Positions 25,901 through 61,239 of a stretch of 64,000 nt of DNA are shown piece after piece. Each line of letters opens with the position of its first letter. Position 1 is the first letter of the stretch. The stretch lies in the NCBI GenBank assembly GCA_000004695.1, contig CM000151.3, forward strand, positions 5,088,001 to 5,152,000. The letters are read 5' to 3'. The notes beneath the pieces are model-generated. The model was not told the origin of the DNA and searched no databases. It saw nothing but the letters and a program-made list of their open reading frames with translations. Position numbers and translations under genes: made by a program. The DNA is from Dictyostelium discoideum (taxonomy: Eukaryota).

Positions 25901-28900
25901 ATAAGCTATTGTTATTAAGTTTACCATATGGTCCAACTTTCCAAAGAGTTGAATCATGTTCAATTGGTGATGGATGTTCATTCTTTAAACTTTCAATGTC
26001 ACCTTGTTCAGAGTTTGACAAAGATTTCTTAAATCCTTCAATTATTGATTGTGCATTCCATGGTTTATTAGTACTCAGTGAAGGTCCACAAGAGATTGTT
26101 TTCGATCGTTTACAAGATATGAAATTCTATTCTTCAAATGTACCTTCAACAAGACCTCAATTCATTTATGCCTTTGCTAAATTCGATAAAATTGTAGGAA
26201 ATTCAACTCATGGTTCTCTAGATATCATGTTAGAAGATGGTACATTATTAATTTCAATTAAAAATGTTAAATGTACATCATTAATACGTTTAAAGAAACA
26301 ATCAATTAAATATCCTTCACAAAATGTTTATTCACACCATTGGCAATCAAAAGATTCACCATTAACTTTAATTGAAAATCAATTAATTGAAGAGAAATCA
26401 TCAGAATCTAAAATTAATTTTGAAAAATTATTAAATGATAAATTATTTAATGATTATTTAATTAGATTATTAAACCAATCAATTAAATCTGAATTTATAG
26501 AATTCGATTATAAAACTTCAACAGTAGATACTTTAGAAATTGATTCAAATAATACAAAACTATTAGAAAAGATTCAATCAATTTTAAAAACAATTGATTC
26601 ATTAGATCAATCAATTGATTTAGCTAGTTTAAAACAAGTAATTATTGAAAAATCATCATCATTTAAAAAAGAAATTAATTTAATTGAAAAATCAATCAAA
26701 CGTATTGTTTCATTATTAAAAGGTGGTGAAAGTGAACATTTTTCACCAAGTAATCCAAGTTCACCAAATGACACACCAAGATATAATTCAAACAATTGTT
26801 CTTCAAAGAGTAATAATACCTCTAGTGGTGCTGATGATGATACTAACAATGAAGAAACAATTAATCAATTAAATAATGAACCATTTAATTTCTCAAATTC
26901 TCAATTCATTTCAAATCAAAATCAATTAATTTCAAAAACAATTGTAAATTCATTTGATAGATTAATTAATTCGATTGAAATTGGCGAAAAGAAATTAATT
27001 AAAATAATTGATTTATCAAGTATCTATCAAAATAATCAACTTTCAAAATTATTATTATTACAATTAAATCAATTACTAATTAATTTATCAAATAATAATA
27101 ATATTGAAATTGAATATACAATTCCATCAAATACCAAAAATATTGATTCAATTAAAGAAGAAACTAAATCGATTTCAAATTTATTAAATATTAAATATCG
27201 TAGTTTTGATTTACAAGATGATTTAGAAAGTAATGGTTATTTAAATTCAAATTATGATTTAATTATAACTTCTTTATTATTAGTTTCAACAAACTCAATT
27301 GATTCAAATGAAGTTTTATCAAAACTTTATAAATTATTATTACCAAAAGGTCAATTAATTTTAATGGAACCACCAAAGGATGTATTATCATTCAATCTTT
27401 TATTTGCAAATGATTTCAAACAATCATTAGAAATTAAAAGTGAACAAGAAATTAAATCATTAATTAGATATTGTGGTTTCACTAAAATTGAAACAAATAA
27501 TATTACCCAAGATGATGAAGAAGAACAACAACAACCACCATCAATTTTAATAGTTCAAACTGAAAAGAGAGATATTGAATCAATGTCATTGACTTTCTCA
27601 TCAGATCCAGAATCATTAAATTCTTCATATAGTAATTGTATATTCATAGTTTCAAAAGAACAAAAAGAAAATCCAACTTCATATATTCAAGAATATTTTG
27701 ATATTACTGAAGTATTCTGTGATAACACTACAATTATTGAAGCTGGTGATAGTGAATTATTAACAAAGACAATTGAATCAGGTATTGGTAAAAATGATAT
27801 TATTTTCTTTTTAGTTTCACTTGAAGAATTAACAATTGAAAATTATAAACAAGTTACAATGCAATATACATTAGTTAATCAAATACTTTTAAGAAATAAT
27901 CTTTCAACTAGATTTGCTTTATTAACTTACGATTCTCAAAATGGTGGTAAAAATTATTTAGGATCATCATTAATTGGTACTTTTAGATACTTTTTAGAAT
28001 TTCCATCATTGAATACCTTTTCAATTGATGTCGATAAAGATTCAATTGATAATCTTACATTATTCTTACGTTTAGTTGATCTATCTACAATTGGTGATAG
28101 AGAAACTATTGTTAGAAATAATAAAATTTTTGTTCAAAAGATTTTCAAAGAGCCAAAATTGTTATCACCATCAAATAATTACGAAAAGGATACAAATAAT
28201 TTATATTTGAATACAAATAGTAATTTAGATTTTTCATTCCAATGCAAAGAGAAATTACCACATGGTTCCGTCGAAATTAAAGTTATGTCAACTGGTATCA
28301 ACTATAAAGATAATCTTTTCTATAGAGGTTTATTACCACAAGAAATCTTTACAAAAGGTGATATTTATTCTCCACCATTCGGTTTAGAATGTGCTGGTTA
28401 TATTACACGTGTTGCACCAAGTGGCGTTACTCGTTTCAAAGTTGGTGATCAAGTTGTTGGTTTTGCAAGCCATTCTTTAAGTTCACTAGCTATTACTCAT
28501 CAAGATAAAATTGTATTAAAACCTGAAAATATTTCATTCAATGAAGCTGCTGCCGTTTGTGTAGTTTATGCAACAAGTTATTATTCAATTTTCCATATTG
28601 GTGCATTTATGGCCGATAAAGAATCAATCCTAGTTCATTCTGCAACTGGTGGTGTTGGTTTAGCAACTTTAAATCTTTTAAAATGGAAGAGAAATCAATT
28701 GAAAAAACATGGCAACTCTGAAATTAGTAATGATGCTTCAATTTATGCTACAGTGGGTTCTAAAGAAAAAGTCGATTATTTACAAGAGAAATATGGTGAT
28801 TTAATAACTGCAATTTACAATAGTAGAGATACTGAATATTGCGATGAAATTAAACAACAATCAGCACAAGGAGGTGTAGATTTAATTTTAAATACACTCT

Positions 28901-30465
28901 CTGGTGATTATTTATCTGCAAATTTCCGTTCACTTTCCCAAGTTGGTAGAATTATGGATTTATCAGTCACTCAATTGGTTGAAAATGATTCATTAGATTT
29001 TTCAAACTTTAAGTATCATGTTACTTACAGTACAATCGATTTAGAAAGAGCTACAACATATAATTCAAAAATCGTTAGAGATATCCTCACAGAAGTATTT
29101 GATGCAATTTCTGATGGTAGTCTTGAAAATATTCCAGTTAAAGTTTTCCCAGCAACTCAAGTTAAAACTGCGATTGAATATATTAATGAACGTGTTCATA
29201 TTGGTAAAATTGTAGTTGATTTTGAAAACTTTGAACAAGATATTCTTAAACCAGCTTTACAAGAGAAAGAAAATCCAATTCAATTGAATAAAGTTAAAAA
29301 ATTGGAACATACTTGTGATACTTTAAATAATACAATTTTAATCACTGGTCAAACTGGTATTGCTGTTCATATTTTAAAATGGATTATTTCTGGTTCTGTT
29401 TTAAATTCAAATAAATCACAACAACAAGTAACAGATTTCATAATTTTATCAAGATCATCATTAAAATGGGAACTTGAAAATTTAATTAATCAAACTAAAC
29501 ATAAATATGGTGATAGATTTAGATTCCATTATAAATCTGTAAATATTGCAGATTTAAATTCAACTCGTACTGCAATTGATCAAGTTTATTCAAGTTGTAA
29601 AAATGTTTCACCAATTAAATCAGTATTACATTTTGCAACAGTTTATGAATACATTTTACCAGAAGATATCACTCAAACCGTAATTGATAATACTCATAAT
29701 CCAAAAGCAGTCGGTGCAATTAATTTACATAATCTTTCAATTGAAAAAGATTGGAAATTAGAAAACTTTATTCTCTTTTCATCAATTGGTGCTATCATTG
29801 GTGGTTCAAAACAATGTGCATATAGTAGTGCTAATTTAGTATTGGATTCATTATCAAACTATAGAAAGAGTATTGGTCTTGCTTCAACTTCAATTAATTG
29901 GGGTGGTTTGGATGCTGGTGGTGTTGCCGCCACTGATAAATCAGTCGCAAGTTTCTTAGAGGGTCAAGGTATTTTATTGGTTTCTTTATCAAAGATTTTA
30001 GGTTGTCTTGATTCAGTTTTCCAACCATCTAATTCCCATTTATCAAACTTTATGCTTTCAAGTTTCAATATTGATAATCTTTTATCTTCTGCACCTCAAA
30101 TGAAGAGAAAAATGGGTCACCACCTAACAAATTATAAAACTTCATCTGCTAGCTCTGATGATTCATTGGGTGATTCTAGTTCTACTCAAGCAAAAGTCAT
30201 TTCTACAATCTCTGAATTATTATCAATTCATCCATCAAAATTAAATTTAGATACAAGATTAAAAGACTATGGTATTGATTCTTTATTAACAGTACAATTA
30301 AAGAATTGGATAGATAAAGAATTTACAAAGAATTTATTCACTCATTTACAATTATCATCAAGTAGTATTAATAGTATCATTCAGAGAATTAGTTCAAAAT
30401 CAACTTCAACATCTACTCCCAATCCAACTAACACCACAAAACAAACCGCAACAACAAAAACATAA
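22973..30465 (+). CDS. polyketide synthase copy A, exon 2 of 2 (about 2603 aa total): KS-AT-DH-(degenerate MT-like)-ER-KR-ACP, no C-terminal release domain
   Basis: Acceptor AG at 22971-22972. KS active-site [85 protein letters not shown] plus [19 protein letters not shown]. Contains track ORF 23038..30465. Confidence 0.9.
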
Positions 30466-33637: not shown

Positions 33638-33677
33638 CTTTCAAAAAAAAATTTTTATATAAATATTATATACATAC

Positions 33678-33995
33678 ATCCAAACCTTCAAACATTACAG
33701 AATTTCTAAATGCTTGTTGATCAGAGACAACCCTTGTTGTTTGAGGGAAACCATGACAATGTTCTCCTTTATAAACTGTACTATTTTGATTGGTATCACC
33801 AATTCTCTCAACCTGTTTTCTGACATTACAACCTTGAAATGTACATTTATAATAGTGTCTTGGATGTAAACTTCCCTTTACATTCTTTTGACCATATTTT
33901 CTCCATTGATAACCATCAGATACAATATTAGAAATATTATTACTATTATTACTATTATTACTATTATTACTATTAGTATTACTATTTTGAGGCGA

Positions 33996-34029
<34 letters not shown>

Positions 34030-34445
34030 TGAGTTGAGTTATTTTCTTCATCTTCTTCATTATTGATATTATTAATACTATAATTGTTATTGTTATTGTT
34101 ATTGTTATTGTTATTGTTATTGTTATTGTTATTGTTATTGTTATTGTTATTGTTATTATTTATATTGTTATTATTTATATTGTTATTAGTTTTATTTTTC
34201 TTTTGTTTCTTTAAAGGTGTTGGTGTAGTAGTTGTTGTTGTTGTTGTGGTTGTTGCAGGTGATTGTTTTTGAGGAGATATTTGAACTGGTGAAAATGGTG
34301 GTTGTTGATCTGATAAATTACTTTTAGGTGAAGTTGGTACAACATTGGAAGATTTCTTTGAATAATAAGGTGATGATGAAATCATTGGTGGAATGATCTT
34401 TAAATTTGATAGAAATCCTTCTCCATTTGGTTTGTTATTTCTATA

Positions 34446-34523
<78 letters not shown>

Positions 34524-34667
34524 TTCATTATTTTTACCAAATGCAGTTTCATTATCACGTTTAAATGGATTAGTTGGAATAGGTGGGAAATAATCATTTG
34601 GTTTTTGTTCCTCTTTCTTATTGGTATTAATTATTTTTTCAGTTTGCTCTTTGTCGACTTGCATTTC

Positions 34668-34716
<49 letters not shown>

Positions 34717-34718
34717 GG

Positions 34719-34751
<33 letters not shown>

Positions 34752-35273
34752 TTCACCATGTTCTTGTTGGATTTGGTGATAATTTTCTTCTTTAATTTGT
34801 AGTTTTTGAATTTTTGAATTGGTACGAGATTGGTTTTTATTGAGAAGAGAATTATCAAATTCAGAATGAGACGTTAATTGTTGCTTTGGATTTGATTGGT
34901 TTTTATCATGATTCAATTTTTTTTGTTTAAATATCTCTGACTCTGAGAATGAATCACTTTCATCATTATTATTTTTATTTTTACTTTTATTACTAATGTT
35001 GTTTTTTTTATAATTATTGTTATTATTACCCTCAAAATATTCATCATCATCGTCATCATATTTTTCATCATCATCATCATCATCATCAATATATTCATCA
35101 CTTGCATCATATTCATCTTCATTATCACTTTTTGTTAAAAAAGTTATTTGTTGTTTTACATTATGTGTTGTAGTTTTATTTTTTTTTTGTTTAGTGGTTT
35201 TATTTACAGAGTTTTTTACAATTGGTTGTAATTTATTATTATTATTATTATTTATATTTTCTATAGCATCCTT

Positions 35274-35339
<66 letters not shown>

Positions 35340-35604
35340 TTGTTGTTGTTTTTGTTCTTGTTCTTGTTCTAGTTGTTTTTGTTGTAATGCCAATAATTTC
35401 TTTGCCATATATTTACTAATTTTACCATTTTGTTGTGGTGAATTACCGCCATTAGTATCATTAAGATTGGATTTGAGTTTTGGTTTTTGTAATTTAGCCG
35501 ATTTGTTTGGTTTATCAACAAATGTTGGTTCATTATTTTCAATGGTGTCATCATCACCATAATCATCTTCATCATCTTCATTATTATTGTTGTTGTTGTT
35601 GTTG

Positions 35605-35647
<43 letters not shown>

Positions 35648-36263
35648 TATTATTTGTGGTTGTAGTTGTAGTTGTAGTTGTGGTGGTTGATGAACCATTT
35701 ACACCAACTTTGTTATTTTCATTATTATTATTATTGTTGTTATTATTATTATTTACATTAATTTCATTGATATTGGTAAGAAATGATTTATCTGGTGATA
35801 TGGATAGAATTGAAGAATTTCTTAATTCCTCAATTGAAAATGATTGATTCTCTTTCAATGATTGATGAAGTTTGTGGAATAATACTAACTCTTTTTCACC
35901 TGGTTTAATTTGATTTGCTGATTTGATCATATTTTGAATAAAATCTCTATCACTATTATTATTATTACTATTACTATTATTGGGTATGTTGGTGTCTTTA
36001 TTTGTATTATTTATAAGACTTTCAAAATAATTGGAATATTTATTTATTCCATTATTATTATTATTATTATTGCTATTGCTATTGCTATTGCCATTGTTTT
36101 TATTATTGTTATTGTTATTGTTATTGTTATTGTTATTGTTATTGTTATTGTTATTGTTATTGTTATTGTTATTGTTATTGTTATTGTTATTGTTATTGTA
36201 ATTGTTATTGTTATTGTTATTGTTATTGTTATTATTTAAATTTTCATTACCAGAAATAGTGTG

Positions 36264-36327
<64 letters not shown>

Positions 36328-36359
36328 TTATTTAATTCGGTGGAATATTGAGCTCCCAT
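33678..36359 (-). CDS. wrky1: WRKY transcription factor, exon 1 of 2 (894 aa; extreme poly-Asn/poly-Gln/acidic low complexity; N-terminal WRKY domain at its 3' end)
   Basis: ATG at 36359 (MGAQYST..). WRKYGQK plus C-X4-C...H-X-H zinc finger ([41 protein letters not shown]). GTATGT donor immediately after GAT (plus-strand acatac, 33672-33677). Confidence 0.85.
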
Positions 36360-38493: not shown

Positions 38494-39807
38494 ATGTTAA
38501 AAACCAATATAAATAAAATAATTGTGGGAGAATCTTCAAGATTTTTACGCGCACAAAATTCTTCTCTTACTAATGGTTTTCTAAAAATCCAACACACCAC
38601 CACCACTAAAAGAAGTTTCTGTAATTTTACTACCACCCCACAAATAAATAACAACACAAATAATAATAATAATAATAATAGTAATAATAACAGTTTAAAT
38701 GACAATTTTATTAATAACAATATAAAAAATAATGAATATTTAAAATTAAAAAGAGTTGTTGTAACTGGGATGGGTATTGTATCTCCATTAGGTGTAGGAA
38801 TAAAATATAATTGGGATAAATTAATAAATGGTGAGAGTGGAATTAAAAGATTTGAAGGATTTGAAGATAGTAGAATTGATTGCCCATCAAAAGTTGTAGC
38901 AAGAGTACCAAAAGGTGAAGGTATAGGTGAGTTTAATTCAAATACTATGATACCATCACAAGTGAAATTGGCAAGCTCTGATTTCATAAAATATGCAATC
39001 GTTGCAACTGATGAAGCTATTAAAGATTCAAAACTAGATAAATTCATTGAATCAAATGAAAAACTTCAAGAAAGAATTGGAGTATGTATTGGTTCTGGTA
39101 CAGGTTCAATGGAAGAAATTATCTCAGCAAATGAAAAGATTTCAAATAAATTAAATAACAATAACAATAACAGTGATAGTGGTAGTGGTAGTGGTAGTGG
39201 TGGTGGTGGTGGTAAAGTTTCAGCATATTTTATACCAAAAATTTTAATTAATGAAGCATCTGGTATAATTAGTATTTTACATAAAGCGAAAGGACCTAAT
39301 ATGTCAATTGTTAGTGCATGTGCAACTGGGTCTCATTGTATTGGCGAATCATTTAGAAAGATAAAATATGGTGAAGTGGACGCAATGATATGTGGTGGTA
39401 CTGAAGCGAGTATAAATTCAGTTTCAATGATTGGTTTCTCACGTATGAAAGCATTATCAACCAAATATAATAATCATATTAATCCATCATCAAGTAGTAG
39501 ACCATTCGATGAAGGTAGGGATGGATTTGTAATGGGTGAAGGCTCTGGAATATTAATATTGGAAGAGTATGAACATGCTTTAAAAAGAGGTGCAAATATT
39601 TATTGTGAAATCACTGGTTATGGTTCAACTGGCGATGCCCATCATATTTCAGCTCCAAATTCTGATGGAAACGGTCCGTTAAGGTCAATGAATTTAGCAT
39701 TACTAGAATCTGGTTTACCAAATTCCTCTCATATCGATTATATAAATGCTCATGCAACTTCAACGCCATTAGGTGATGGTATTGAATGTACTGCTGTTAA
39801 AAACTTT

Positions 39808-39858
<51 letters not shown>

Positions 39859-40119
39859 GAAATTATAATGAGCTCAAATAAAGGTTCAATTGGTCATTTG
39901 TTGGGTGCTGCTGGAAGTGTTGAATCAATATTTTCAATTTTATCATTATATAATAATATTATACCACCAACTTTAAATTTAGAAAATCCATCAAAAGATT
40001 GTCAGGGTATAAATTTAGTACAATTTAAATCTCAATCAAAACCAATTAGAAATGTTTTAAAAAATTCATTTGGATTTGGTGGAACAAATTGTTCTTTAAT
40101 TTTTTCAAAAATAAATTAA
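38494..40119 (+). CDS. mitochondrial-type 3-oxoacyl-[acyl-carrier-protein] synthase (KAS II / OXSM homolog)
   Basis: Single ORF of 541 aa. N-terminal presequence-like MLKTNINKIIVGESSRFLRAQNS. KS catalytic triad context SACATGSHCIG, HATSTPLGD, GHLLGAAG. Dictyostelium-style poly-Asn and poly-GSG insertions. Confidence 0.85.
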
Positions 40120-40410: not shown

Positions 40411-42120
40411 ATGATTTCATCAATTCAATGGGTACCAAGAGGTGCATCAAATCCATTCCCAAAGAAATTTGACCCAAATGGTGAAGATATGGAAGAATTA
40501 AATGAAGAAGAAATTAAAGCAATGCAAGAAGAGGAAGAAGAAGATAGAATAATTGAAAAGAAATTTGAAAAGGGTGTACCAAGTGTTATGAATGACAAAG
40601 AAAAAGATTTTTATAAGAGATATAATTTTGATGATTATGATAGTGATGAAGGTGAACAAGATGAAGAGGAAAGAGATGAAAATGATCATAGTCGTAAAAC
40701 AGAAGAAGTTGGATTAAAATTCATTAATAGAGCAATGAAGGGTTTAATGTTTTATAAAGATACAGATTCAGATCCATACTTAACCAATAAGGAAGAAGAG
40801 GATATTGAAGATATAGAGGATGTTATTATTAGACCAACCGATTCAATATTGGTATCAGCAATTGTCACTGGTGAAGATGATTATTCGCATTTAGATATTA
40901 TGGTCTATGAAGAGGAATGCGATAATCTATACGTTCATCATGATATTATCCTCTCATCATATCCATTGGCATTGGCATGGATGGATCAAAACCCAATAAA
41001 TCCACAAGAGAAAGGTTCGTTCATGGCCGTTGGTACTTTCGAGCCATCCATCGAAATTTGGGATTTGGATGTTGTAGATAATTTAATTCCAACCGTTATA
41101 TTGGGTGGTAAAGAAGAGGATAGCGCCGATCCAATGAAAAAGCCATCCGCTAAAAAACGTGGTGGTAAACATAATAAATTCAAGGAAGGTAGTCATAGAG
41201 ATGGTGTTATGTCTCTCTCTTGGAATAGTCATCAACGTAATGTTTTAGCAAGTGGTAGCAGTGATAATACCGTCAAGGTTTGGGATATCACAACTCAACA
41301 ATGTCTCAACACCTTTACTCATCATAAGGATAAAGTATCTTGTTTACATTGGAATTCTCATGAGAAAACTGCACTTTTAATTGGTTCTCATGATAAACAT
41401 GTTAGTATTCTCGATGTTCGTGCACCAGATTCCGCATATAAATGGTCCGTAAAAGGTGAGGTTGAATCTTTATCTTGGAATCCACATAATCCAAAAGAGT
41501 TCATCGTTGGTACTGATGATGGTAGATTACTTTGTTATGATGCTACACTTGGTACTGCCGCTGCTCCAGTTTGGTCTGTTCAAGCCTCTCAAAAAGGTAG
41601 CGTCTCTTGTTTCTCCTATTGTCCTGGTCAAGTTGGTTTCTTTGCAACTGGTTCCTCTGATCATACTGTTAAACTTTGGAATTTAGAAACCTCCTCAAAT
41701 AAACCAACCCTCATTGAATCTAAAAATTTAGGTCAAGAAATTTTCACACTTTCATTCTTTGAAAATTCACCTTTCCTCTTAGCAGTTGGTTCTGAAACTC
41801 AAAGACCAAATGTAATTGACACTAAAAGATTTATCTCTGTACAAAATAGTTTTGGTATCGCTAGACCTGAAAATTCAAAAGAACCAGTTTTCATTACAAA
41901 TAATAAAAATAAAAATAATACTGAAGAAGAAGAAGAAGAAATTGAAGAAGATACTGATAGTGATCATAATGATGATGAAATTGAAGAAGAACAAGAAGAA
42001 GAAGAACAAGAAAAAGAAATTACACCTCCACCAAAACAAACTAAAAAATTAAATAATACAAAAAATAATAAAAAAGATGTTAAAAATAGAAAGAAAGTTG
42101 GTGATTCAGATGAAGAATAA
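40411..42120 (+). CDS. pwp1: periodic tryptophan protein 1 homolog (PWP1, WD40 ribosome-biogenesis factor)
   Basis: Single ORF of 569 aa. MISSIQWVPRGAS.. and ..LYVHHDIILSSYPLALAWMD..IEIWDLDVVDNLIP.. match PWP1 (FYVHHDILLSAYPL..IEVWDLDIVDSLEP). WD repeats. Acidic tails. Confidence 0.85.
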   Translation: MISSIQWVPRGASNPFPKKFDPNGEDMEELNEEEIKAMQEEEEEDRIIEKKFEKGVPSVMNDKEKDFYKRYNFDDYDSDEGEQDEEERDENDHSRKTEEVGLKFINRAMKGLMFYKDTDSDPYLTNKEEEDIEDIEDVIIRPTDSILVSAIVTGEDDYSHLDIMVYEEECDNLYVHHDIILSSYPLALAWMDQNPINPQEKGSFMAVGTFEPSIEIWDLDVVDNLIPTVILGGKEEDSADPMKKPSAKKRGGKHNKFKEGSHRDGVMSLSWNSHQRNVLASGSSDNTVKVWDITTQQCLNTFTHHKDKVSCLHWNSHEKTALLIGSHDKHVSILDVRAPDSAYKWSVKGEVESLSWNPHNPKEFIVGTDDGRLLCYDATLGTAAAPVWSVQASQKGSVSCFSYCPGQVGFFATGSSDHTVKLWNLETSSNKPTLIESKNLGQEIFTLSFFENSPFLLAVGSETQRPNVIDTKRFISVQNSFGIARPENSKEPVFITNNKNKNNTEEEEEEIEEDTDSDHNDDEIEEEQEEEEQEKEITPPPKQTKKLNNTKNNKKDVKNRKKVGDSDEE

Positions 42121-46434: not shown

Positions 46435-49400
46435 TTATGTTTTTTTTGTTGCGGTTTGTTTTGAGGTGTTAGTTGGATTGGGAGTAGATGTTGAAGTTGA
46501 TTTTGAACTAATTCTCTGAATGATACTATTAATACTACTTGATGATAATTGTAAATGAGTGAATAAATTCTTTGTAAATTCTTTATCTATCCAATTCTTT
46601 AATTGTACTGTTAATAAAGAATCAATACCATAGTCTTTTAATCTTGTATCTAAATTTAATTTTGATGGATGAATTGATAATAATTCAGAGATTGTAGAAA
46701 TGACTTTTGCTTGAGTAGAACCAGAATCACCCAATGAATCATCAGAACTAGCAGATGAAGTTTTATAATTTGTTAGGTGGTGATCCATTTTTCTCTTCAT
46801 TTGAGGTGCAGAAGATAAAAGATTATCAATATTGAAACTTGAAAGCATAAAGTTTGATAAATGGGAATTAGATGGTTGGAAAACTGAATCAAGACAACCT
46901 AAAATCTTTGATAAAGAAACCAATAAAATACCTTGACCCTCTAAGAAACTTGCGACTGATTTATCAGTGGCGGCAACACCACCAGCATCCAAACCACCCC
47001 AATTAATTGAAGTTGAAGCAAGACCAATACTCTTTCTATAGTTTGATAATGAATCCAATACTAAATTAGCACTACTATATGCACATTGTTTTGAACCACC
47101 AATGATGGCACCAATTGATGAAAAGAGAATAAAGTTTTCTAATTTCCAATCTTTTTCAATTGAAAGATTATGTAAATTAATTGCACCGACTGCTTTTGGA
47201 TTATGAGTATTATCAATTACGGTTTGAGTGATATTTTCTGGTAAAATGTATTCATAAACTGTTGCAAAATGTAATACTGATTTAATTGGTGAAACATTTT
47301 TACAACTTGAATAAACTTGATCAATTGCAGTACGAGTTGAATTTAAATCTGCAATATTTACAGATTTATAATGGAATCTAAATCTATCACCATATTTATG
47401 TTTAGTTTGATTAATTAAATTTTCAAGTTCCCATTTTAATGATGATCTTGATAAAATTATGAAATCTGTTACTTGTTGTTGTGATTTATTTGAATTTAAA
47501 ACAGAACCAGAAATAATCCATTTTAAAATATGAACAGCAATACCAGTTTGACCAGTGATTAAAATTGTATTATTTAAAGTATCACAAGTATGTTCCAATT
47601 TTTTAACTTTATTCAATTGAATTGGATTTTCTTTCTCTTGTAAAGCTGGTTTAAGAATATCTTGTTCAAAGTTTTCAAAATCAACTACAATTTTACCAAT
47701 ATGAACACGTTCATTAATATATTCAATCGCAGTTTTAACTTGAATTGCTGGGAAAACTTTAACTGGAATATTTTCAAGACTACCATCAGAAATTGCATCA
47801 AATACTTCTGTGAGGATATCTCTAATAATTTTTGAATTATATTTCGTAGCTCTATCTAAATCTATTGTATTGTAGCCAACATGATACTTAAAGTTTGAAA
47901 AATCTAATGAATCATTTTCAACCAATTGAGTGACTGATAAATCCATAATTCTACCAACTTGGGAAAGTGAACGGAAATTTGAAGATAAATAATCACCAGA
48001 GAGTGTATTTAAAATTAAATCTACACCTCCTTGTGCTGATTGTTGTTTAATTTCATCGCAATATTCAGTATCTCTACTATTGTAAATTGCAGTTATTAAA
48101 TCACCATATTTCTCTTGTAAATAATCGATTTTTTCTTTGGAACCCACTGTAGCATAAATTGAAGCATCATTACTAATTTCAGAGTTGCCATGTTTTTTCA
48201 ATTGATTTCTCTTCCATTTTAAAAGATTTAAACTTGCTAAACCAACACCACCAGTTGCAGAATGAACTAGGATTGATTCTTTATCGGCAATAAAAGCACC
48301 AATATGGAAAATTGAATAATAACTTGTTGCATAAACTACACAAACGGCAGCAGCTTCATTGAATGAAATATTTTCAGGTTTTAATACAATTTTATTTTGA
48401 TGAGTTGTAACATGTGAACTTAAAGAATGGCTTGCAAAACCAACAACTTGATCACCAACTTTGAAACGAGTAACGCCACTTGGTGCAACACGTGTAATAT
48501 AACCAGCACATTCTAAACCGAATGGTGGAGAATAAATATCACCTTTTGAAAAGACTTCTTGTGGTAATAAACCTCTATAGAAAAGACTATCTTTATAATT
48601 GATACCAGTTGACATAACTTTAATTTCGACGCAACCATGCAGTAATTTCTCTTTGCTTTGGAATGAAAAATCTAAATTACTATTTGAATACAAGAATAAA
48701 TTATTTGTATTCTTTTCATAATTATTTGATGGTGATAACAATTTTGGCTCTTTGAAAATCTTTTGAACAAAAATTTTATTATTTCTAACAATAGTTTCTC
48801 TATCACCAATTGTAGATAGATCAACTAAACGTAAGAATAATGTAAGATTATCAATTGAATCTTTATCTACATCAATTGAAAAGATATTCAATGACCGAAA
48901 TTCTAAAAAGTATCTAAAAGTACCAATTAATGATGATCCTAAATAATTTTTACCACCATTTTGAGAATCGTAAGTTAATAAAGCAAATCTAGTTGAAAGA
49001 TTATTTCTTAAAAGTATTTGATTAACTAATGTATATTGCATTGTAACTTGTTTATAATTTTCAATTGTTAATTCTTCAAGTGAAACTAAAAAGAAAATAA
49101 TATCATTTTTACCAACACCTGATTCAATTGTCTTTGTTAATAATTCACTATCATCAGCTTCAATAATTGTTGCATTTTGACAGAAAAATTCAGTAATATC
49201 AAAATATTCTTGAATATATGAAGTTGGATTTTCTTTTTGTTCTTTTGAAACTATGAATATACAATTACTATATGATGAATTTAATGATTTTGGATCAGAT
49301 GAGAAAGTTAATGACATTGATTCAATATCTCTCTTTTCAGCTTGAACTATTAAAATTGATGGAGGAGGTGGTTGTTGTTGTTCTTCATCATCTTTAGTAT

Positions 49401-52400
49401 TAAGATTTGTTTCAATTTTAGTGAAACCACAATATATAATTAATGATTTAATTTCTTGTTCACTTTTAATTTCTAATGATTGTTTGAAATCATTTGCAAA
49501 TAAAAGATTGAATGATAATACACCCTTTGGTGGTTCCATTAAAATTAATTGACCTTTTGGTAATAATAATTTATAAAGTTTTGATAAAACTTCATTTGAA
49601 TCAATTGAGTTTGTTGAAACTAATAATAAAGAAGTTATAATTAAATCATAATTTGAATTTAAATAACCATTACTCTCTAAATCATCTTGTAAATCAAAAC
49701 TACGATATTTAATATTTAATACATTTGAAATCGATTTAGTTTCTTCTGTAATTGAATCAATATTTTTGGTATTTGATGGAATTGTATATTCAATTTCAAT
49801 ATTATTATTATTTGATAAATTAATTAGTAATTGATTTAATTGTAATAATAATAATTTTGAAAGTTGATAATTTTGATAGATACTTGATAAATCAATTATT
49901 TTAATTAATTTCTTTTCGCCAATTTCAATTGAATTAATTAATCTATCAAATGAATTTACAATTGTTTTTGAAATTAATTGATTTTGATTTGAAATGAATT
50001 GAGAATTTGAGAAATTAAATGGTTCATTATTTAATTGATTAATTGTTTCTTCATTATTAGTATCATCATCAGCATCGTCAGAAGAGGCAGCATTATTCTT
50101 TGAAGAACAATTGTTTGAATTATTTCTTGGTGTATCATTTGGTGAACTTGGGTTACTTGGTGAAAAATGTTCACTTTCACCACCTTTTAATAATGAAACA
50201 ATACGTTTGATTGATTTTTCAACTAATTTAATTTCATTTTTAAATGATGATTTTACAATAATTGCTTGTTTTAAACTAGTTATATCAATTGATTGATCTA
50301 ATGAGTCTATTGGGTTTAAAATTGATTGAATCTTTTCTAATAGTTTTGCATTTTTTGAACCAATATCTAAAGTATCTACTGTTGAAGTTTTATAATCGAA
50401 TTCTATAAATTCAGATTTTATTGATTGGTTTAATAATCTAATTAAATAATAATTAAATAATTTATCATTTAATAATTTTTCAAAATTAATTTTAGATTCT
50501 GATGATTTCTCTTCAATTAATTGATTTTCAATTAAAGTTAATGGTGAATCTTTTGATTGCCAATGGTGTGAATAAACATTTTGTGAAGGATATTTAATTG
50601 ATTGTTTCTTTAAACGTATTAATGATGTACATTTAACATTTTTAATTGAAATTAATAATGTACCATCTTCTAATATGATATTAAGAGAACCATGAGTAGA
50701 ATTACCTTCAATTTTATCGAATTTAGCAAAGGCATAAATGAATTGAGGTCTTGTTGAAGGTACATTTGAAGAATAGAATTTCATATCTTGTAAACGATCG
50801 AAAACAATCTCTTGTGGACCTTCACTGAGTACTAATAAACCATGGAATGCACAATCAATAATTGAAGGATTTAAGAAATCTTTGTCAAACTCTGAACAAG
50901 GTGACATTGAAAGTTTAAAGAATGAACATCCATCACCAATTGAACATGATTCAACTCTTTGGAAAGTTGGACCATATGGTAAACTTAATAACAATAGCTT
51001 ATTGTAAACTTCAGACTTTGTAAGGGTGGTAAATGAACATTGACTTTTAAGTTTTTCAATATCCAATTTATTATTCTTTGGATTATGTTTGAATAATCCA
51101 ATACGACCATTTGAAGTTTTAGTCCATTTAGTTGAGTTTCTATTATCCTTTATAAAGAATTCAACTTTAAATTCACCCTTGGTAGTTGGTGTAATTGAAG
51201 TTTGTAAATGATGTTGAACACCATCTTTCAAAAAGAATGGATTTGAAAATTCTAAATTGAAAATGGTAATATCTTGACCATTGAATTGACGAAGAATATT
51301 ATCAATATAACCAGAACCCGGGAAAAGATATTTACCTTTAATTTTATGACCTTTTAGATATTGATGAGCAGATTTATCAATATCAATAAATAATTCCATT
51401 AAAGTATTACCTGCAAATTGATCATGACCTAATAAATTATTTGATGGACCACGTTTTACCATTTTACTTTGGTTTGGTTCATCCCAATATTCCTCAAAAT
51501 CCCATTGGTATCTTGGTAATTTATTTGTTGATTCTTTAAATGATGATATATCGCCACCTCCGGATGAAGAAGAAGTTGGTAATAATTGTTGACCACTTGC
51601 AAAATCAATTTCAACACCATTACAATATAGAGTTGAAATTGCTAATTTAAATTGTGTTAATTCTTCTTTCTTTTTATGTAATGGTGATACTATAATTGGT
51701 TTTGAAGTTATTGTTGAATTTGATGGTTTACATTTTGGAATGTAAAAACCTAAAGTTGGATGAGGACCAATCTCTAAAAAGATTGCATTCTTGTATGATT
51801 CATTTTCTTCAATGAAATTGAAAATGTTTGAAATGGCTTTGGTGAATTCAACAGGCATACGTAAATTATCATAAATGTATTGAACATTGTAGAAACCTTT
51901 ATGAGATAATTGTGAACCAGTAATTGTTGAAAAGAATGGTACACATGGTACATTTGATTCTGGTAAATCTGATAAATCTTTGAATATCTTTTCTTTAATC
52001 ATTTCTTGTTTTGATGAGTGGAAAGAACATGGTGTACCTAAGAAAGCACAAAAAACACCTTCAGCTGATAGTGTCGATTTAGCACCTAGCAAATCTTGTT
52101 CAGAACCAGTAATAACAATTGAATTTGGATCATTATAACAAGCTATTTCAATTTCTGGATATAATAAAGCACATTTTTCAAGATAAGCATCAGCACCGAT
52201 ACCAATTGATAATAATCTACCAGTTCCCATTGTTAAATTTTGAGCTAAGCCTCTATAGTAAACGATTTTAACAGCAGTTTCTAAACTGATGACATCAGAG
52301 AATAAAGCGGATGGAATTTCACCAAAACTATGACCAACTACAATTGATGGTGAAATACCAAATGATTTATAAAGTGCGACTAAACCAACTTGAATTAAGA

Positions 52401-53930
52401 AAATACTTGGTTGTGCTAAAATTGGATGATGAATTTCTGGTGAATCTTCACTTTCTAATGAAAGTAACTTTTGGAGTATAGAATATCCAAAATAATTAGC
52501 AAGTAATTTATCACAATGATCAATGGCATCTTTAAATACTGATTCAGTTTCATATAATGCTTTACCCATATCTCTCCATTGTGGGCCTTGACCAGTGAAA
52601 ACATAAATGACTGGAGTTGATGAAGCTGGTGCTGAAATTGTTGAAGTCAATGATGAAGTTGATGTAGTTTCATTTCTTTTATTTAAAAAGTCATCCCAAT
52701 CGGAAGCTGTTATAACTTTTCTCTTTATTAAATTTGATTTTGAAATTGTTTGATGTTTTACAAAATCTTTAAATAATATTGTATCTTTATAAATAGATTG
52801 GTTTGAAATTAATTTCTCTATATATTTATCTAATGAAATATTACAATTTGCTGAAAATGGTATTAAATATTCTTTTTTATCATCATTTGAAGAAGAGGAT
52901 GTAGAGTTATTATTTGTTGTTTTCAATAATTCATCATAATTAATTGGTGCTTCACTTAGAATCATATGACAATTTGAACCAGATAGACCAAAACAATTAA
53001 TACCCATATTAATTAATTTATTGATTGGGAACTGGATTTCATCAGTGACTACACGAATATTCCAATCTTCGAATTTGATTAATGGATTTGGTTTTTCAAA
53101 ATGAATATTTGGAACTAATGAACGATTTTTTAAAGAGAGTGCAACTTTGATTAATGATGCAATACCGGCAGCACTTTCAAGATGACCAATGTTGCTTTTA
53201 ACTGAACCAATGTACAATGGAGCATCGGGTGTATGATTATCTTTGAATATTCTTGATATTGCTTCAATTTCAATCGGATCACCAACTGGTGTACCAGTAC
53301 CATGAGCTTCTATATAATAGATATCTGATGGGTTTACACCAGATTTCTTTAAAGCAATTTCAATGTTTTCACCTTGAGCCTTCATTGATGGTTGAATGAT
53401 ATTGGTCTTTGCATTGTATCCATCAACATTTGAACTACCACCTTTGATAACACAATAAATACGGTCACCATCTTTAATTGCATCTGAATATTTCTTTAGG
53501 ATACAAACACCACCACCTTCACTACGAATGTAACCATCAGCACCAGCATCGAATGATCTACATTGACCTTTATGTCCTAACATATTTAATCCAGAGAATG
53601 TCATTGAAAAACATGGATCGAAAATACCATTGACACCACCAACAATTGCCATCTTACTATCACCATTTGCAATGGCTTGGCAACCAAGATAAACTGCGTT
53701 CAATGATGATGAACATGCTGTATCAAGTGTCATTGATGGGCCACGTAAATCAAAACTAAAACTTAAACGATTTGATATAAATGATCCTGCAGTACCAGGA
53801 GTTATATAAGGATTCACATATGATATATCTCTGAATTGACATCTTTGATAATCAGTATTCATCATACCAATAAATACTGCTGTATCTGATCCACGAAATG
53901 TTGATGGTTTAATATTTGCATCTTCAAATG
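46435..53930 (-). CDS. polyketide synthase copy B, exon 2 of 2 (about 2604 aa total), near-identical inverted paralog of copy A
   Basis: Track ORF 46435..53865 extended to acceptor AG (plus-strand ct, 53931-53932). Same KS-AT-DH-MT-like-ER-KR-ACP order. About 95-97% aa identity to copy A, with differences such as [15 protein letters not shown] versus [15 protein letters not shown] and a 1-aa indel. Confidence 0.9.
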
Positions 53931-53938
53931 CTTTTTTT

Positions 53939-53978
<40 letters not shown>

Positions 53979-54036
53979 CTTTTTAATTTATAATATTTAA
54001 TTATTATTATTATTATTATTTATAATTATTATATAC

Positions 54037-54355
54037 CTTCCCAAAGTGTTGTCATTAAAAGACGTTGTTGTGGATCAATAATTGGTGCTTCTTTTGGTGA
54101 AATACCAAAAAATAATGGATCAAAATTTTTCCATTCTTCATCTTTTAAGACACCACCATATTCGTTATTTATATATTTTTGTTCATAAAAAGATCTTGAC
54201 CACTTTTCTGTAGGAATCTTTGAAATACCATCCATTTTGTTTGATAATTGATTCCAAAATTGATACGGATTATTTCCACCACCTGGAAAACGGAAACCCA
54301 TACCAATAATGGCAATATCATCATTATTTTCATCTTTAATATTATTAAATGTCAT
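54037..54355 (-). CDS. polyketide synthase copy B, exon 1 of 2
   Basis: Track ORF 54029..54355 ([26 protein letters not shown]..). Donor GTATAT (plus-strand 54031-54036) after TGG GAA G, mirroring copy A. Confidence 0.9.
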
Positions 54356-55835: not shown

Positions 55836-56717
55836 TTATTTTTTTGGTTTATTCCAAAAAGTTTTTTTGGTGGGAGAAGAAGGTGCCGGAATTGAAGAAT
55901 TTGAATTTGAAGTTAAAGAAGAAGATGTTGGAATATCTAAAGATTTGGGAGAGGTACTTGGTGATTTTTCAAAAACTAAAGTTTCTTGGGCAAAGGAAAG
56001 TTTTGCTTCCATACGTGGGTTTTGAAGAAATTGAGAAGTTGGTGGTTGTTTAGTTGATGATGATGACGATGAGGGTTGGTGAACCAAATTACTTTGTTGT
56101 GAACTAAATCTTGTGAGTTCTTCAAACTTTTTAATGATTGCTTTAGTTGAATTTTTAATATCCAAACTTCTTGACCTTCTGTGGGAAACAGTATCACCAC
56201 CACCATCATTGGTTTCTGATTTATTTTCATCCTCATCTTTTGGAGTTGTAATTTTAATCTGTTCTATATTTTGATTAGTACTGGTTGGAGTGGTAGGAGA
56301 GGATTTAATTGTTGTTGAGGTTGCTGTTGTAGGTGTTGTTGCTGTAGTTGCTGCAACTGTCACTGATTCATTTGATTTGTGTAATGGTTGTATTTGTTTA
56401 TTTACTGGAGTTGTAACTTTTTGAGGTGCATTTATAAGAGTAGTTGGTTGAGTGGTTGTTTTATTTTGATTTACTATAGTTGAGGATGGTTTTACGATAT
56501 CATTAAAATTATTATTTGAATTTGAAATGACCACAGTGGGTTTTGGAGGGTTTGAATTTGATCTTGATTTTGGTTGAGCAGTGGCAGTTGATGTTACAAT
56601 TCTTGAAGGTATTGTTATTACCCTCTGGCTTGTTGATGGATTAATTGTTGTTGGAACTTTATAGGTTGATTGTGGTGGTTTCCCAATTGATGATAATGAT
56701 GATGAAGATGTTGTTGC

Positions 56718-56748
<31 letters not shown>

Positions 56749-57555
56749 GGTAGAGATGTTGAATTCGTAGTTACTTTTGAATTGGTGGACGATGAAGATG
56801 TTGTTGTTGCTGTTGCTGTTGTTGTAGTAGTTGTTGTTGTTAAAGGTGTAGGATTTGTAATTACTTTTGCAGTTGATTTAAAACTTAAATTTGAATCTGA
56901 ATCTGGATTATATGGTCTTGGGAAACTATATTTTGGATCTTCTAATAAAGATTTTTCATTATTATTATTATTTTTATTATTATTATTTTCTTCACTTTCA
57001 GGATTCCAAGGTCTTGGGAAAGATAAAAGTTCAGTTTCATTAAAGGAAATGATTTTACTTGATTGATAAGGTCTTGGGAAAGAAAATTTAGAATAGTTTA
57101 ATTGAGATTTCAATTGTTTCATTTCATCCTCTTCATTATCATCGCCACCTTCTAAATCATGTTCAAGTTGATCCTTTTGAGATACTACTAATGGTTCCTC
57201 TTCACCTCTATCATTTAAAATTACAACAGATGTTTGGTGTGGTCTTGGGAATGAAAAGTGTGAATCATTGTTGTTATTACTATTATTATTATTGTTATTT
57301 ACACAACCATTAATATTTGATTGTCCTGGTTGATATGGTCTTGGGAATGAAAAGTGAGATTCATCATTACTATTGTTATTATTTACACCACCATTAATAT
57401 TTGATTGTCCTGGTTGATATGGTCTTGGGAATGAAAAATGTGAATCATCATTACCATTGTTATTTATATTATCAACGGCAGAATCATCAGGTTGATATGG
57501 TCTTGGAAATGAAAAATCATCATATATATTACCACTATTTCCAAGATTATTATTA

Positions 57556-57587
<32 letters not shown>

Positions 57588-58034
57588 GTTATTGTTATTG
57601 TTATTATTATTATTATTGTTATTATTATTATTATTATTGTTATTATTATTATTATTATTTTTATTATTATTATTTTTTTCATTTAATGGTAAATGTAATT
57701 CAGGTGGTTTAAAACTTCTAAGTGGTGGTTCGTAATCACCTCCAGAATTTACAATTAATTCACTTTCCAGTATGTATTCTAATAAACCAAGGATATTTGA
57801 AGCAGATGGTCTACCTGATGGTGCAACTTTACAACATTCGGATACTAAACGTAATAATTCCTTTGGACAATCTGCTGGTACTTTTGAAAGGAAAAACTTT
57901 TGATCAACACCTAAATCTTCATTCCTAATTCTTGGTGTTAAATTCTCTCTTGTAATTAATTCAATTAAAACCATACCAAATGAAAACACATCACAAGATG
58001 CATCATATTCTTCACCTATTAATACTTCAGGTGC
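55836..58034 (-). CDS. TKL-group protein kinase, exon 3 of 3 (C-lobe APEVL.., then a roughly 600-aa low-complexity tail with 7 tandem FSFPRPYQP-type repeats; stop 55836-55838)
   Basis: Acceptor tatag (plus-strand ct, 58035-58036). APEVLIGEEYDASCDVFSFGMVLIELITREN. Contains track ORF 55836..57989. Confidence 0.8.
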
Positions 58035-58116
58035 CTATAATAATAATTAATTTTATATAAAATATGTGAATATGTGGACAAAAAGAGTTTTTTTTAAAAA
58101 AAAAAAAAAATCTTAC

Positions 58117-58453
58117 CATCCAATCATCAGTACCACAAATTGTCATTTTTGATTTTTCAGATTTATCCATTTTTCTAGCTAAACCCATATCGCATACTTT
58201 AATAACCCAATTCTCAGCAACTAATAGATTGGTTGATTTTAAATCCCTATGAATAACGCCATTCTCGTGTAAATATGCCATTGATGCTGCTATATCTCTT
58301 GCAATCTTTACCTTTAATTTCCATGTAATATCAATACTTTTATTTTTTATATACCAATGTAAATCACCACCTGATACTAACTCTGTTAATAAAAATAATG
58401 ATCTCTCTTTTTCTGCTATTCCATAGAATTTAATTACATTTGGATGTGATAAC
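58117..58453 (-). CDS. TKL-group protein kinase, exon 2 of 3 (HRDLKSTN catalytic loop, DMG variant of DFG)
   Basis: Acceptor acag (plus-strand ct, 58454-58455). LSHPNVIKFYGIAEKERSLFLLTELVSGGDLHWYI..AYLHENGVIHRDLKSTNLLVAENWVIKVCDMGLAR..GTDDWM. GTAAGA donor after ATG (plus-strand 58111-58116). Includes track ORF 58027..58281. Confidence 0.75.
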
Positions 58454-58551
58454 CTGTATTTGTTTTATTTACAATATTATTAATAATCTAAAACTTTTTA
58501 TATTCATTTTTTTTTTTTTTTTTTTTTTATAAATTGAATTTGAAAACAAAC

Positions 58552-58781
58552 ATTTTTAAAGTATAAATTTCTCTTTCTAAAAATTTAAGTAATATATCTC
58601 TGTTTGGGTCATTATCAGAGATTGTAATCTTTTTGATTCCAATCTCTTTTCCATTTAAAACACCTTGATATACTTTTCCAAAACCGCCACTCCCTATAAT
58701 TGATAAAGGATCAAATTTAATTTCATCATAGTCAACAATCCTTGACATTCTCTTATTAGAGTCTTGAAAAAGTTTAGACAT
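58552..58781 (-). CDS. TKL-group protein kinase, exon 1 of 3 (glycine loop GSGGFGKVYQG, VAIK-type Lys)
   Basis: ATG at 58781. MSKLFQDSNKRMSRIVDYDEIKFDPLSIIGSGGFGKVYQGVLNGKEIGIKKI... Proposed non-canonical GTTTGT donor (plus-strand 58546-58551). Phase-2 end. The exact donor is uncertain. Confidence 0.6.
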
Positions 58782-59675: not shown

Positions 59676-60224
59676 TTAATTAATATTTATTTTAAAAGAA
59701 GAATTTGATAGATCAGATTTCTTATTGATTGTGATTATTAATAGACCATTTTCAAAATTTGATTTAATAGTTGATAAATCTAATTGATATAAAATACTAG
59801 TTAAATCCAAACATCTTTTAAAATTACCAAATGATCTCTCTGATAAATATTTTCTAAATTCTTTTTTATTCTCTTCTATTAAAGGTAGCTCATTGTTTGT
59901 TTTGGTTTTATCTGAGTGTTGTTGTTGTTGTTGTTTGTAATTATTATTGATTTTCTTTTCACCTTGAATGGTTAGAATCGAATCTTTAATATCGATTTCG
60001 ATATTATCTTTTGAAATACCTGCTAATTCAGTTTCAATTATTATGTTGTTATCTGTGATTGTAACATCCATTGATGGTATAATATCAATTCTTTTAATGC
60101 TGTTATTTCTAAAATTATTATTATTATTATTATTATTTGATTTTAGTCTTTTACATGAATAATAATTTGAATGGTTATTATTTTTATTATTAATTGAATT
60201 TAAAATATCGAAAATTGTTGCCAT
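59676..60224 (-). CDS. small heat-shock protein (HSP20/alpha-crystallin domain)
   Basis: 182 aa. ..[68 protein letters not shown] is an ACD-like beta-sandwich pattern. Dictyostelium has a large sHSP family. Confidence 0.75.
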
Positions 60225-60813: not shown

Positions 60814-61239
60814 ATGTCAAAAAATGGAGAAGCATTTATTTTAGATGATCGTGCAAGAGCACTTGCAAATTATCCACATATGAGAAAAGCAGGTGACTTT
60901 TTATTTGTATCAGGTATTTCATCACGTAGACCAGATAATACTTATGAAGGTGTTCATGTCGATGAAAATGGTAAAGTTACACTCAACATTGAACAACAAA
61001 CTAGAGCAGTCATTGAAAACATTAGAACCATCTTAAAATCAGCAGGAGCTGATCTCGAAAATATCATTGATCTCACTGTTTTCTTAGTAGATATGAAAGA
61101 TTACAATGGTTTCAATTTAGCATACAATGATTATTTCAAAATTGAAACTGGTCCAACTAGAACCACCGTTGCTGTTCATCAATTACCAAATCCAAATCTT
61201 TTAATTGAAATTAAAGCAACTGCATTATGTAATAAATAA
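60814..61239 (+). CDS. RidA/YjgF/UK114-family reactive-intermediate deaminase
   Basis: 141 aa. ..YPHMRKAGDFLFVSGISS..TRAVIENIRTILKSAGADLENIIDLTVFLVDMKDYNGFNLAYNDYFK..PTRTTVAVHQLPNPNLLIEIKATA is the RidA-fold signature. Confidence 0.85.
   Translation: MSKNGEAFILDDRARALANYPHMRKAGDFLFVSGISSRRPDNTYEGVHVDENGKVTLNIEQQTRAVIENIRTILKSAGADLENIIDLTVFLVDMKDYNGFNLAYNDYFKIETGPTRTTVAVHQLPNPNLLIEIKATALCNK

Follow-up and report, generated by a model that had tools for sequence, protein, structure and literature searches.

What does a protein kinase gain from a short peptide written seven times into its tail? The question is raised by a stretch of 64,000 nucleotides (nt) of Dictyostelium discoideum DNA (GenBank assembly GCA_000004695.1, contig CM000151.3, forward-strand positions 5,088,001 to 5,152,000), hereafter, the window, in whose numbering all positions are given. 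On its minus strand lies the LISK-family kinase gene DDB_G0275165, and in the tail of its product the sequence S-F-P-R-P-aromatic recurs seven times. A sequence-only reading of the window had noticed these copies and proposed a multivalent docking array, not simple low complexity. We find that the array is kept in six dictyostelid orthologues and restricted to them, and, with a probability of roughly 0.55, we read it as a multivalent docking platform of short linear motifs that acts independently of phosphorylation on a putative partner.

All seven copies are present. They lie at window positions 56904-57515, minus strand, in exon 3 of the gene, and the SFPRP sequences start at residues 364, 390, 418, 450, 507, 527, and 559 of a 921-residue product. 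In the 64-kb window there are exactly seven occurrences of the coding core TTYCCAAGACCW, all inside the array (0.01 expected), and the composition of the tail predicts 0.0007 copies of SFPRP vs the seven found. On the plus strand, the 17-mer GGTCTTGGGAAWGAAAA has six matches at up to two mismatches (0.07 expected) and seven at up to three (0.62 expected; none of 100 shuffles reaches seven). Five units are worded FSFPRP, one LSFPRPW, and one YSFPRPYNP. The first three all read FSFPRPYQP (unit 1, residues 363-371, 57489..57515; unit 2, residues 389-397, 57411..57437; unit 3, residues 417-425, 57327..57353); they are followed by FSFPRPHQT, with His at the aromatic position (unit 4, residues 449-457, 57231..57257), FSFPRPYQS (unit 5, residues 506-514, 57060..57086), LSFPRPWNP (unit 6, residues 526-534, 57000..57026), and YSFPRPYNP (unit 7, residues 558-566, 56904..56930), all on the minus strand. 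The earlier wording of the repeat holds for the core in all seven copies, but its ...PGQS extension is found in units 2 and 3 only, and the spacing, described as 75-110 nt, is actually 78, 84, 96, 171, 60, and 96 nt.

At the DNA level, a recent 84-nt tandem duplication (57282..57464, minus strand; 2.2 copies with 91% matches in Tandem Repeats Finder, TRF) gave units 2 and 3 and part of unit 4. Between units 2 and 3, 91 of 99 nt are identical (94% over 54 nt), as are 16 of 19 flanking residues. The remaining units have only the core of about 17 nt in common, with 43-72% identity over 54 nt. The array is not a microsatellite-type tandem DNA repeat, since only units 2-3 (and partly 4) are tandem in the DNA and the array is kept across species. 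Between residues 358 and 572, 19 of 22 aromatic residues, seven of eight Arg, and 19 of 21 Pro stand in or beside motif cores, so that the region alternates compact knots of hydrophobic residues, Arg, and Pro with polar spacers. The Phe codon of S-F-P is TTC in six of the seven units; these are six of the eight TTC codons of the gene, vs 24 TTT, a bias that may stem from a shared origin of the units or from local sequence context.

As orthologues we took the six proteins that, in a full-protein search, align well beyond the kinase domain. They come from Polysphondylium violaceum, a close JGI relative, Acytostelium subglobosum, Tieghemostelium lacteum, and Heterostelium album, together with one EukProt sequence. 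In each of the six, the motif stands five to seven times in the corresponding part of the tail, in agreement with the earlier view that this is not simple low complexity. Pooled across species, the 44 units have Phe at +1, Pro at +2, and Pro at +4 without exception and Arg at +3 in 42; position 0 is S in 39, T in two, D in two, and A in one, and the aromatic position holds Y (33 units), W (seven), F (two), or H (two). Q or N predominates at +6 and P, G, or S at +7; the consensus is [S/T]-F-P-R-P-[Y/W/F]-x-[P/G/S] with flanks that are usually acidic or polar. Majority identity is 84% in the motif columns vs 50% in the other alignable tail columns, and the orthologue tails are otherwise some 35-43% identical to the tail encoded in the window. 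This conservation argues that the array is under selection and is not low complexity of the slippage type.

The last two units can be followed by position. The flanks of unit 6 are most similar to those of the penultimate unit in the other species (...SELLSFPRP(Y/W/F)(Q/N)P(D/E) in all of them), with F520, E524, L525, L526, F528, P529, R530, P531, and P534 invariant in its region. Those of unit 7 match the last unit best (...PDYSFPRPW(N/S)P(D/E) in all species), and here L552, Y558, S559, F560, P561, R562, P563, and P566 are invariant. By these flanks, units 6 and 7 are assigned as old, positionally orthologous copies present in all species. The middle of the array has a different history: three or four ESKFSFPRPYQGSTNNLGNS units, nearly identical to one another, are peculiar to the Polysphondylium-type proteins, which, together with the likeness of D. 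discoideum units 2 and 3, implies that the middle was amplified independently in two lineages and hence that copy number has repeatedly been maintained or raised. For D. purpureum, D. citrinum, and D. firmibasis, the full-protein search returned paralogues only and no orthologue. Among the paralogues, an 827-residue LISK-type protein from EukProt that ends in CCSCWVM (P0006) has two copies of SFPRPA, at residues 351-356 and 388-393 (..SSFPRPASS.. and ..QSFPRPAST..), and its Acytostelium counterpart (P0007) has none.

Is the array joined to the kinase at all? The gene occupies positions 55836-58781 of the minus strand and has three exons. Exon 1 (58552..58781, minus strand) runs from the ATG at 58781 to ...AAAAAT, followed by a GTTTGT donor, and encodes the glycine loop GSGGFGKV and the IGIK lysine; exon 2 (58117..58453, minus strand) encodes the catalytic loop HRDLKSTN and DMG and ends in ...DDWM, followed by a GTAAGA donor; exon 3 (55836..58034, minus strand, stop codon included) encodes the APE motif, the C-lobe of the kinase, and the entire tail of 631 residues. 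The introns measure 98 nt and 82 nt. Because the APE motif, the C-lobe, and the complete tail share a single uninterrupted open reading frame (ORF; 55836..57989), no splice is required to join the tail to the kinase. The sequence-only reading had described the gene correctly, as a TKL-type kinase of three exons with GSGGFGKV, HRDLKSTN, DMG, and APE and an Asn/Thr/Ser-rich tail of about 600 residues; it had named a transcript model in which the tail is detached from the kinase exons as fatal to its proposal, and in our model, which matches the curated span, residue numbering, and junction peptides, the tail is joined to them.

The peptides across both junctions, EIYTLKMLSHPNVIKFYG (EIYTLKM|LSHPNVIKFYG, exons 1/2) and CGTDDWMAPEVLIGEEYD (CGTDDWM|APEVLIGEEYD, exons 2/3), are found in the sequence table of the Dictyostelium kinome paper (PMC1420674). 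Across the same two junctions the aligned orthologues read TLKMLSHPNVI and DDWMAPEV. Since the exon 1/2 peptide is both published and kept in the orthologues, the unusual GTTTGT donor of intron 1, which the earlier reading had wanted confirmed, agrees with the curated model. The exact 921-residue product does not occur in the protein collection; a comparison with paper supplements, in which span, splice-junction peptides, and residue numbering all match, identifies the gene as D. discoideum DDB_G0275165 (protein DDB0229851). From ATG to stop, 58781-55836, it spans 2946 nt, the same as the dictyBase span on chromosome 2 (5143836-5146781) given in the searchable supplement of Nichols et al. (2019; PMC6397043), where the entry is named ‘LISK family protein kinase, TKL group’. 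Neither the gene nor its placement in the family is new: the kinome paper classes it as TKL / LISK / LISK-DD1, with IGIK, HRDLKSTN, and DMG (PMC1420674).

The kinase domain covers residues 26-271 (57789..58706, minus strand, an interval that includes both introns; Pfam matches Pkinase, 2.6e-58, and PK_Tyr_Ser-Thr, 3.1e-52). Its closest PDB matches are LIMK1 (1e-44) and LIMK2 (7.6e-43), with MLK, CTR1, and BRAF ranking behind, and its orthologues carry the name ‘LISK family protein kinase’ in the protein collection. By sequence, it is a member of the LISK (LIMK/TESK) family of TKL kinases. The catalytic residues sought in a LISK-family kinase are all intact (GSGGFG, K50 in IGIK, E71, HRD at 145-147, N152, D165, and APE), and the protein is a putatively active kinase. 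The magnesium-binding motif (residues 165-167) reads DMG, not DFG, in three species, D. discoideum, P. violaceum, and T. lacteum; Acytostelium, Heterostelium, and the protein P0008 have DFG. Pfam gives domains of the kinase type only, N-terminal LIM and PDZ domains were not found by it, and the kinase starts as early as residue 26; with LIM and PDZ absent, membership in the LIMK subfamily was rejected. Directly after the kinase, the segment PPLRSFKPPELH (residues 292-303, 57693..57728, minus strand) is conserved in all orthologues as (Y/E)PPLRSFKPPEL, with P292, L294, and R295 invariant in the alignment. Unlike the remaining tail, its surroundings (residues 281-310) reach 10-residue block means of 76, 90, and 77 in AlphaFold2 (AF2), and the segment may be a C-terminal extension packed on the kinase.

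The tail (17.6% Asn, 14.3% Ser, and 12.4% Thr) has no match in Pfam or PDB. A first AF2 run, on the full-length protein with a 7-sequence alignment, modeled even the kinase poorly and was repeated with 64 sequences. With the larger alignment, the kinase has a confidence score (predicted local distance difference test, pLDDT) above 90, and the blocks that bear the motif stay at about 35-45, with no secondary structure and no contact with the kinase; over both runs their means are about 30-45. AF2 thus predicts that the array region is disordered and is not docked on the kinase. Between kinase and array, an (AAT)n tract encodes about 43 Asn (57546..57674, minus strand; TRF period 3 x 43) and is absent from all orthologues in the alignment. 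On the other side of the array, a 90-nt x 1.9 tandem duplication (56701-56869, TRF) encodes a poly-Thr/Ser stretch.

The same tail holds, outside the array, a second conserved module, SHRRSRSLDIKNSTKAIIKKFEELTRF (residues 806-833, 56103..56186, minus strand), which is kept in the proteins P0001 and P0004 and partly in P0003 and P0005. In the full-length AF2 run, a helix at residues 815-831 is the sole ordered element of the tail and the only tail block with a mean pLDDT up to 67; it is predicted to be amphipathic and comes directly after Ser812. According to the searchable supplement of Nichols et al. (2019; PMC6397043), this Ser is phosphorylated in vivo (window SHRRSRSLDIKNS, localization probability 0.99996), lies in a basophilic RRSRSL context, and does not respond to chemoattractant. 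The central Ser of the published SHRRSRSLDIKNS is residue 812 in our model. We take the RRSRSL/Ser812 module to resemble the 14-3-3 site of TESK1.

How far does the array extend beyond these proteins? A profile built from the six aligned tails without their kinase domains was searched exhaustively against 1.84 billion cluster representatives. It recovers the representatives of the orthologues at 7e-64 to 7e-47 and, besides these, two weak matches only. Both of the latter (P0121 and P0122) were rejected as homologues, being translations of satellite-like tandem DNA, such as a 72-residue unit repeated five times that contains LDFPRPHQP, and represent annotation artefacts of the public collection. 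One reached 43.7 bits on the strength of five copies of ..DFPRPHQP.., so the search is able to see bare arrays of the core. Within this profile search, the array is restricted to its orthogroup. Among 122 proteins fetched, none outside the six orthologues contains FP[RK]P[YWF], and a six-frame translation of the window yields, for [STD]FP[RK]P, the seven units of the array and one TFPKP in a short antisense frame after a stop codon. A full-text search of main texts with the peptide strings, DDB_G0275165, and DDB0229851 returned no relevant paper. The motif array is not described in the searchable literature, and as a whole it fits none of the motif classes tested, the ERK F-site pattern matching about half of the units.

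Taken together, a fixed residue order, two invariant prolines, predicted disorder, polar or acidic flanks, a copy number that is kept, and repeated amplification lead us to a multivalent array of linear motifs. Each copy would be an independent docking site that needs no phosphorylation; one and the same folded partner domain would recognize all of them stereospecifically, with the motif probably extended or polyproline-II-like in conformation. Five to seven such sites on a flexible chain would provide avidity, or would allow several partner molecules or an oligomeric partner to be bound at once. Binding of the partner could then localize or regulate the kinase, or bring substrates to it.

The sequence-only reading had gone further and suggested SH3- or WW-like or phospho-Tyr docking. 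A multivalent array remains the most reasonable interpretation, given selection, predicted disorder, and a tail joined to the kinase, but these classes of ligand do not fit. The motif is indeed rich in proline and aromatic residues, repeated, and disordered, and the generic P..P is found in 27 of the 44 units. Yet the SH3 class I pattern ([RK]xxPxxP) occurs in none of them and class II (PxxPx[RK]) in two; WW group I (PPxY/LPxY) is absent from all 44, the motif reading P-R-P-Y, as are the Homer (PP..F), CIN85 (P...PR), and amphiphysin (P.RP.R) patterns. Ena/VASP EVH1 ligands have the consensus F-P-x-phi and, in ActA and zyxin, acidic flanks, a start that F-P-R-P fits with flanks of the same kind; class I of this ligand, F-P-x-phi-P, nevertheless scores 0/44, with Y, W, F, or H at position 5. 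Obligatory docking through phospho-Tyr (SH2 or PTB) is unlikely as well, because a quarter of the units (11/44) have W, F, or H in place of Tyr and the last unit keeps W in most species. The searchable phosphoproteome text (PMC6397043) contains no phospho-Tyr or other phosphopeptide of the array, only pS812, its Asn-rich tryptic peptides being long, and one further Dictyostelium phosphoproteomics text gave no match. A canonical ligand or SH2 site is on this evidence an unlikely explanation, and what likelihood it has belongs mostly to a non-canonical variant. Further candidates were tried on the same units and rejected: Crk-type Y..P (8/44), tankyrase RxxxxG (2/44), the minor TRAF2 site PxQxxD (3/44), and PY-NLS (13/44, a pattern broken by the W and F variants), as well as, by reasoning only, Pex14 FxxxW, whose required helix two prolines preclude, and a clathrin-box/DxxLL reading of ELLSFP, which concerns one unit and lacks a terminal acidic residue or strict Asp. 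An ERK docking array would instead take F-x-F-P as a DEF/F-site that recruits active ErkA or ErkB and would make the kinase an ERK substrate or a KSR-like scaffold. Such sites read FSFP in KSR1 and FQFP in ELK1, and F.[FY]P is found in five of the seven D. discoideum units and 23 of the 44 overall (30/44 for the relaxed [FYW].[FYW]P). Binding of the F-site to active ERK2 is established according to the searchable text of PMC4459106. Against this, three of six positional classes (QSFP, NSFP/DSFP, and LSFP) do not keep the first Phe, the R-P-aromatic part is left unexplained by a DEF site, and an S/T-P acceptor lies within 20 residues upstream in only four of 23 FxFP units and in none of the five of D. 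discoideum; of the five S/T-P sites near FxFP units, three stand at -4, nearer than usual, one at -5, and one at -19. In the searchable text of PMC6397043, moreover, Dictyostelium ErkB targets are [S/T]PR sites, and S812, unresponsive as it is to chemoattractant, is not of that type. We consider an ERK docking array improbable.

The same clusters of aromatic residues and Arg could also act homotypically, as stickers in polar Asn/Ser/Gly spacers that drive self-association or condensation and, through clustering, trans-activation. The confinement of 19/22 aromatic residues and 7/8 Arg to the cores, the polar, disordered spacers, and a copy number held at five to seven and amplified independently in two lineages all agree with this idea. 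Stickers, however, usually constrain composition and not order, and here the order S-F-P-R-P-aromatic is fixed across 44 units of deeply diverged species; fixed order that includes both prolines is the signature of stereospecific recognition, and stickers are an improbable explanation too. The units might instead bind their own kinase domain, as pseudosubstrate or docking sites in autoinhibition, or serve as autophosphorylation sites. TESK-type kinases are dual-specificity enzymes whose C-terminal tails regulate them, all orthologues carry motif and kinase on one chain, and the residue before Phe is S or T, with two D substitutions. The AF2 model from 64 sequences places no motif block in contact with the kinase, a 1:1 contact needs no multiple copies, and the searchable phosphoproteome text is without an array phosphopeptide, all of which makes an intramolecular role distinctly improbable. 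That the units are neutral low complexity, produced by replication slippage like the poly-Asn and poly-Thr tracts beside them, is barely credible: in its favor are the recent duplication that gave units 2-3, (AAT)43, and the 90-nt duplication, but motif, copy number, and the positions of the last two units are kept in six orthologues and poly-Asn is not, and this cross-species conservation refutes it.

A phosphorylation-independent docking platform is thus the reading that we favor. Three of its parts we infer, namely that the motif binds a protein, that binding is independent of phosphorylation, and that it has a consequence for the kinase, and several points tell against it. The partner is putative; the reader domain is purely hypothetical, because the motif fails every canonical proline-motif pattern tested; aromatic residues and Arg clustered in polar spacers also fit a self-associating ‘sticker’; the AF2 prediction counts as negative evidence only; and the phosphoproteome text, where it is searchable, offers pS812 but no array peptide, in a region of long Asn-rich tryptic peptides. 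A bolder and more tentative version holds that S-F-P-R-P-aromatic is a hitherto unrecognized class of linear motif with its own reader in the social amoebae, and that the LISK kinase is a multivalent scaffold; this is possible, but we would not count on it. Such a reader could be an actin regulator's divergent EVH1- or SH3-type domain, or else ERK acting via an extended F-site.

Among known systems, the closest functional analogy is the C-terminal tail of TESK1. Like DDB_G0275165, TESK1 and TESK2 have an N-terminal LISK-type kinase, no LIM or PDZ domain, and a long non-catalytic tail, which in TESK is proline-rich and a binding platform for regulators. One review states that TESK1 is bound and inhibited by alpha-parvin, and it also cites, by title, papers on 14-3-3beta and Sprouty-4 (PMC2792345). 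The Dictyostelium LISK kinases, however, form a subfamily of their own, LISK-DD1 (PMC1420674), the tail profile found no comparable tail or array outside dictyostelids, and neither cofilin-kinase activity nor a tail-binding partner is on record for DDB_G0275165. Five of the seven copies read F-S-F-P and fit the F.[FY]P pattern of ERK DEF/F-sites, but the first Phe is dispensable in half of the positional classes, R-P-aromatic falls outside the DEF site, the five D. discoideum FxFP units lack the S/T-P acceptor that a DEF site has some 6-20 residues N-terminal of it, and we know of no arrays of five to seven DEF sites. By sequence, the nearest named ligand class is the acid-flanked F-P-x-P-P ligand of EVH1, although the defining fifth proline is missing. 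The Ena/VASP EVH1 arrays of ActA and zyxin are likewise multi-copy and disordered, begin with Phe-Pro, have proline at position 4 and acidic flanks, and the LISK array sits in an actin-related kinase family; some ActA units even read F-x-F-P. In the array, by contrast, the fifth proline is replaced in 44/44 units and position 3 is Arg (42/44). Arrays of Pex5 WxxxF/Y, Eps15 DPF, and dynein LC8 TQT motifs are similarly multi-copy and disordered, with variable spacers and local duplication, and differ in the sequence of the motif.

Elsewhere in the window, upstream of the kinase gene, lie a small heat-shock gene of the Hsp20/alpha-crystallin type (59676-60224, minus strand) and a gene of the RidA/L-PSP family (60814-61239, plus strand). 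A large polyketide synthase gene at 46435-54355 (minus strand) is confirmed by Pfam (KS-AT-DH-ER-KR-ACP), and an ORF of 2475 residues at 23038-30465 (plus strand) is of nearly the same size. The window also contains a separate beta-ketoacyl synthase gene (38494-40119, plus strand), a WRKY-domain gene (33666-36359, minus strand), and a WD40 gene (40411-42120, plus strand).

The nine LISK-DD1 kinases of Dictyostelium have barely been studied, and DDB_G0275165 offers a tractable handle on them: a motif of six residues, in five to seven copies, in several dictyostelid genera, and outside the patterns tested. The case also illustrates how copy number is maintained through independent local duplication. 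Its lineage-specific scope makes the wider impact modest, unless the reader is a conserved domain with an unrecognized specificity. If the motif is a class of its own, the scaffold would couple its reader to LIMK/TESK-like signaling. The identity of the reader, whatever its class, would assign this orphan LIMK/TESK-like kinase to a pathway, most likely a cytoskeletal or MAPK-related one.

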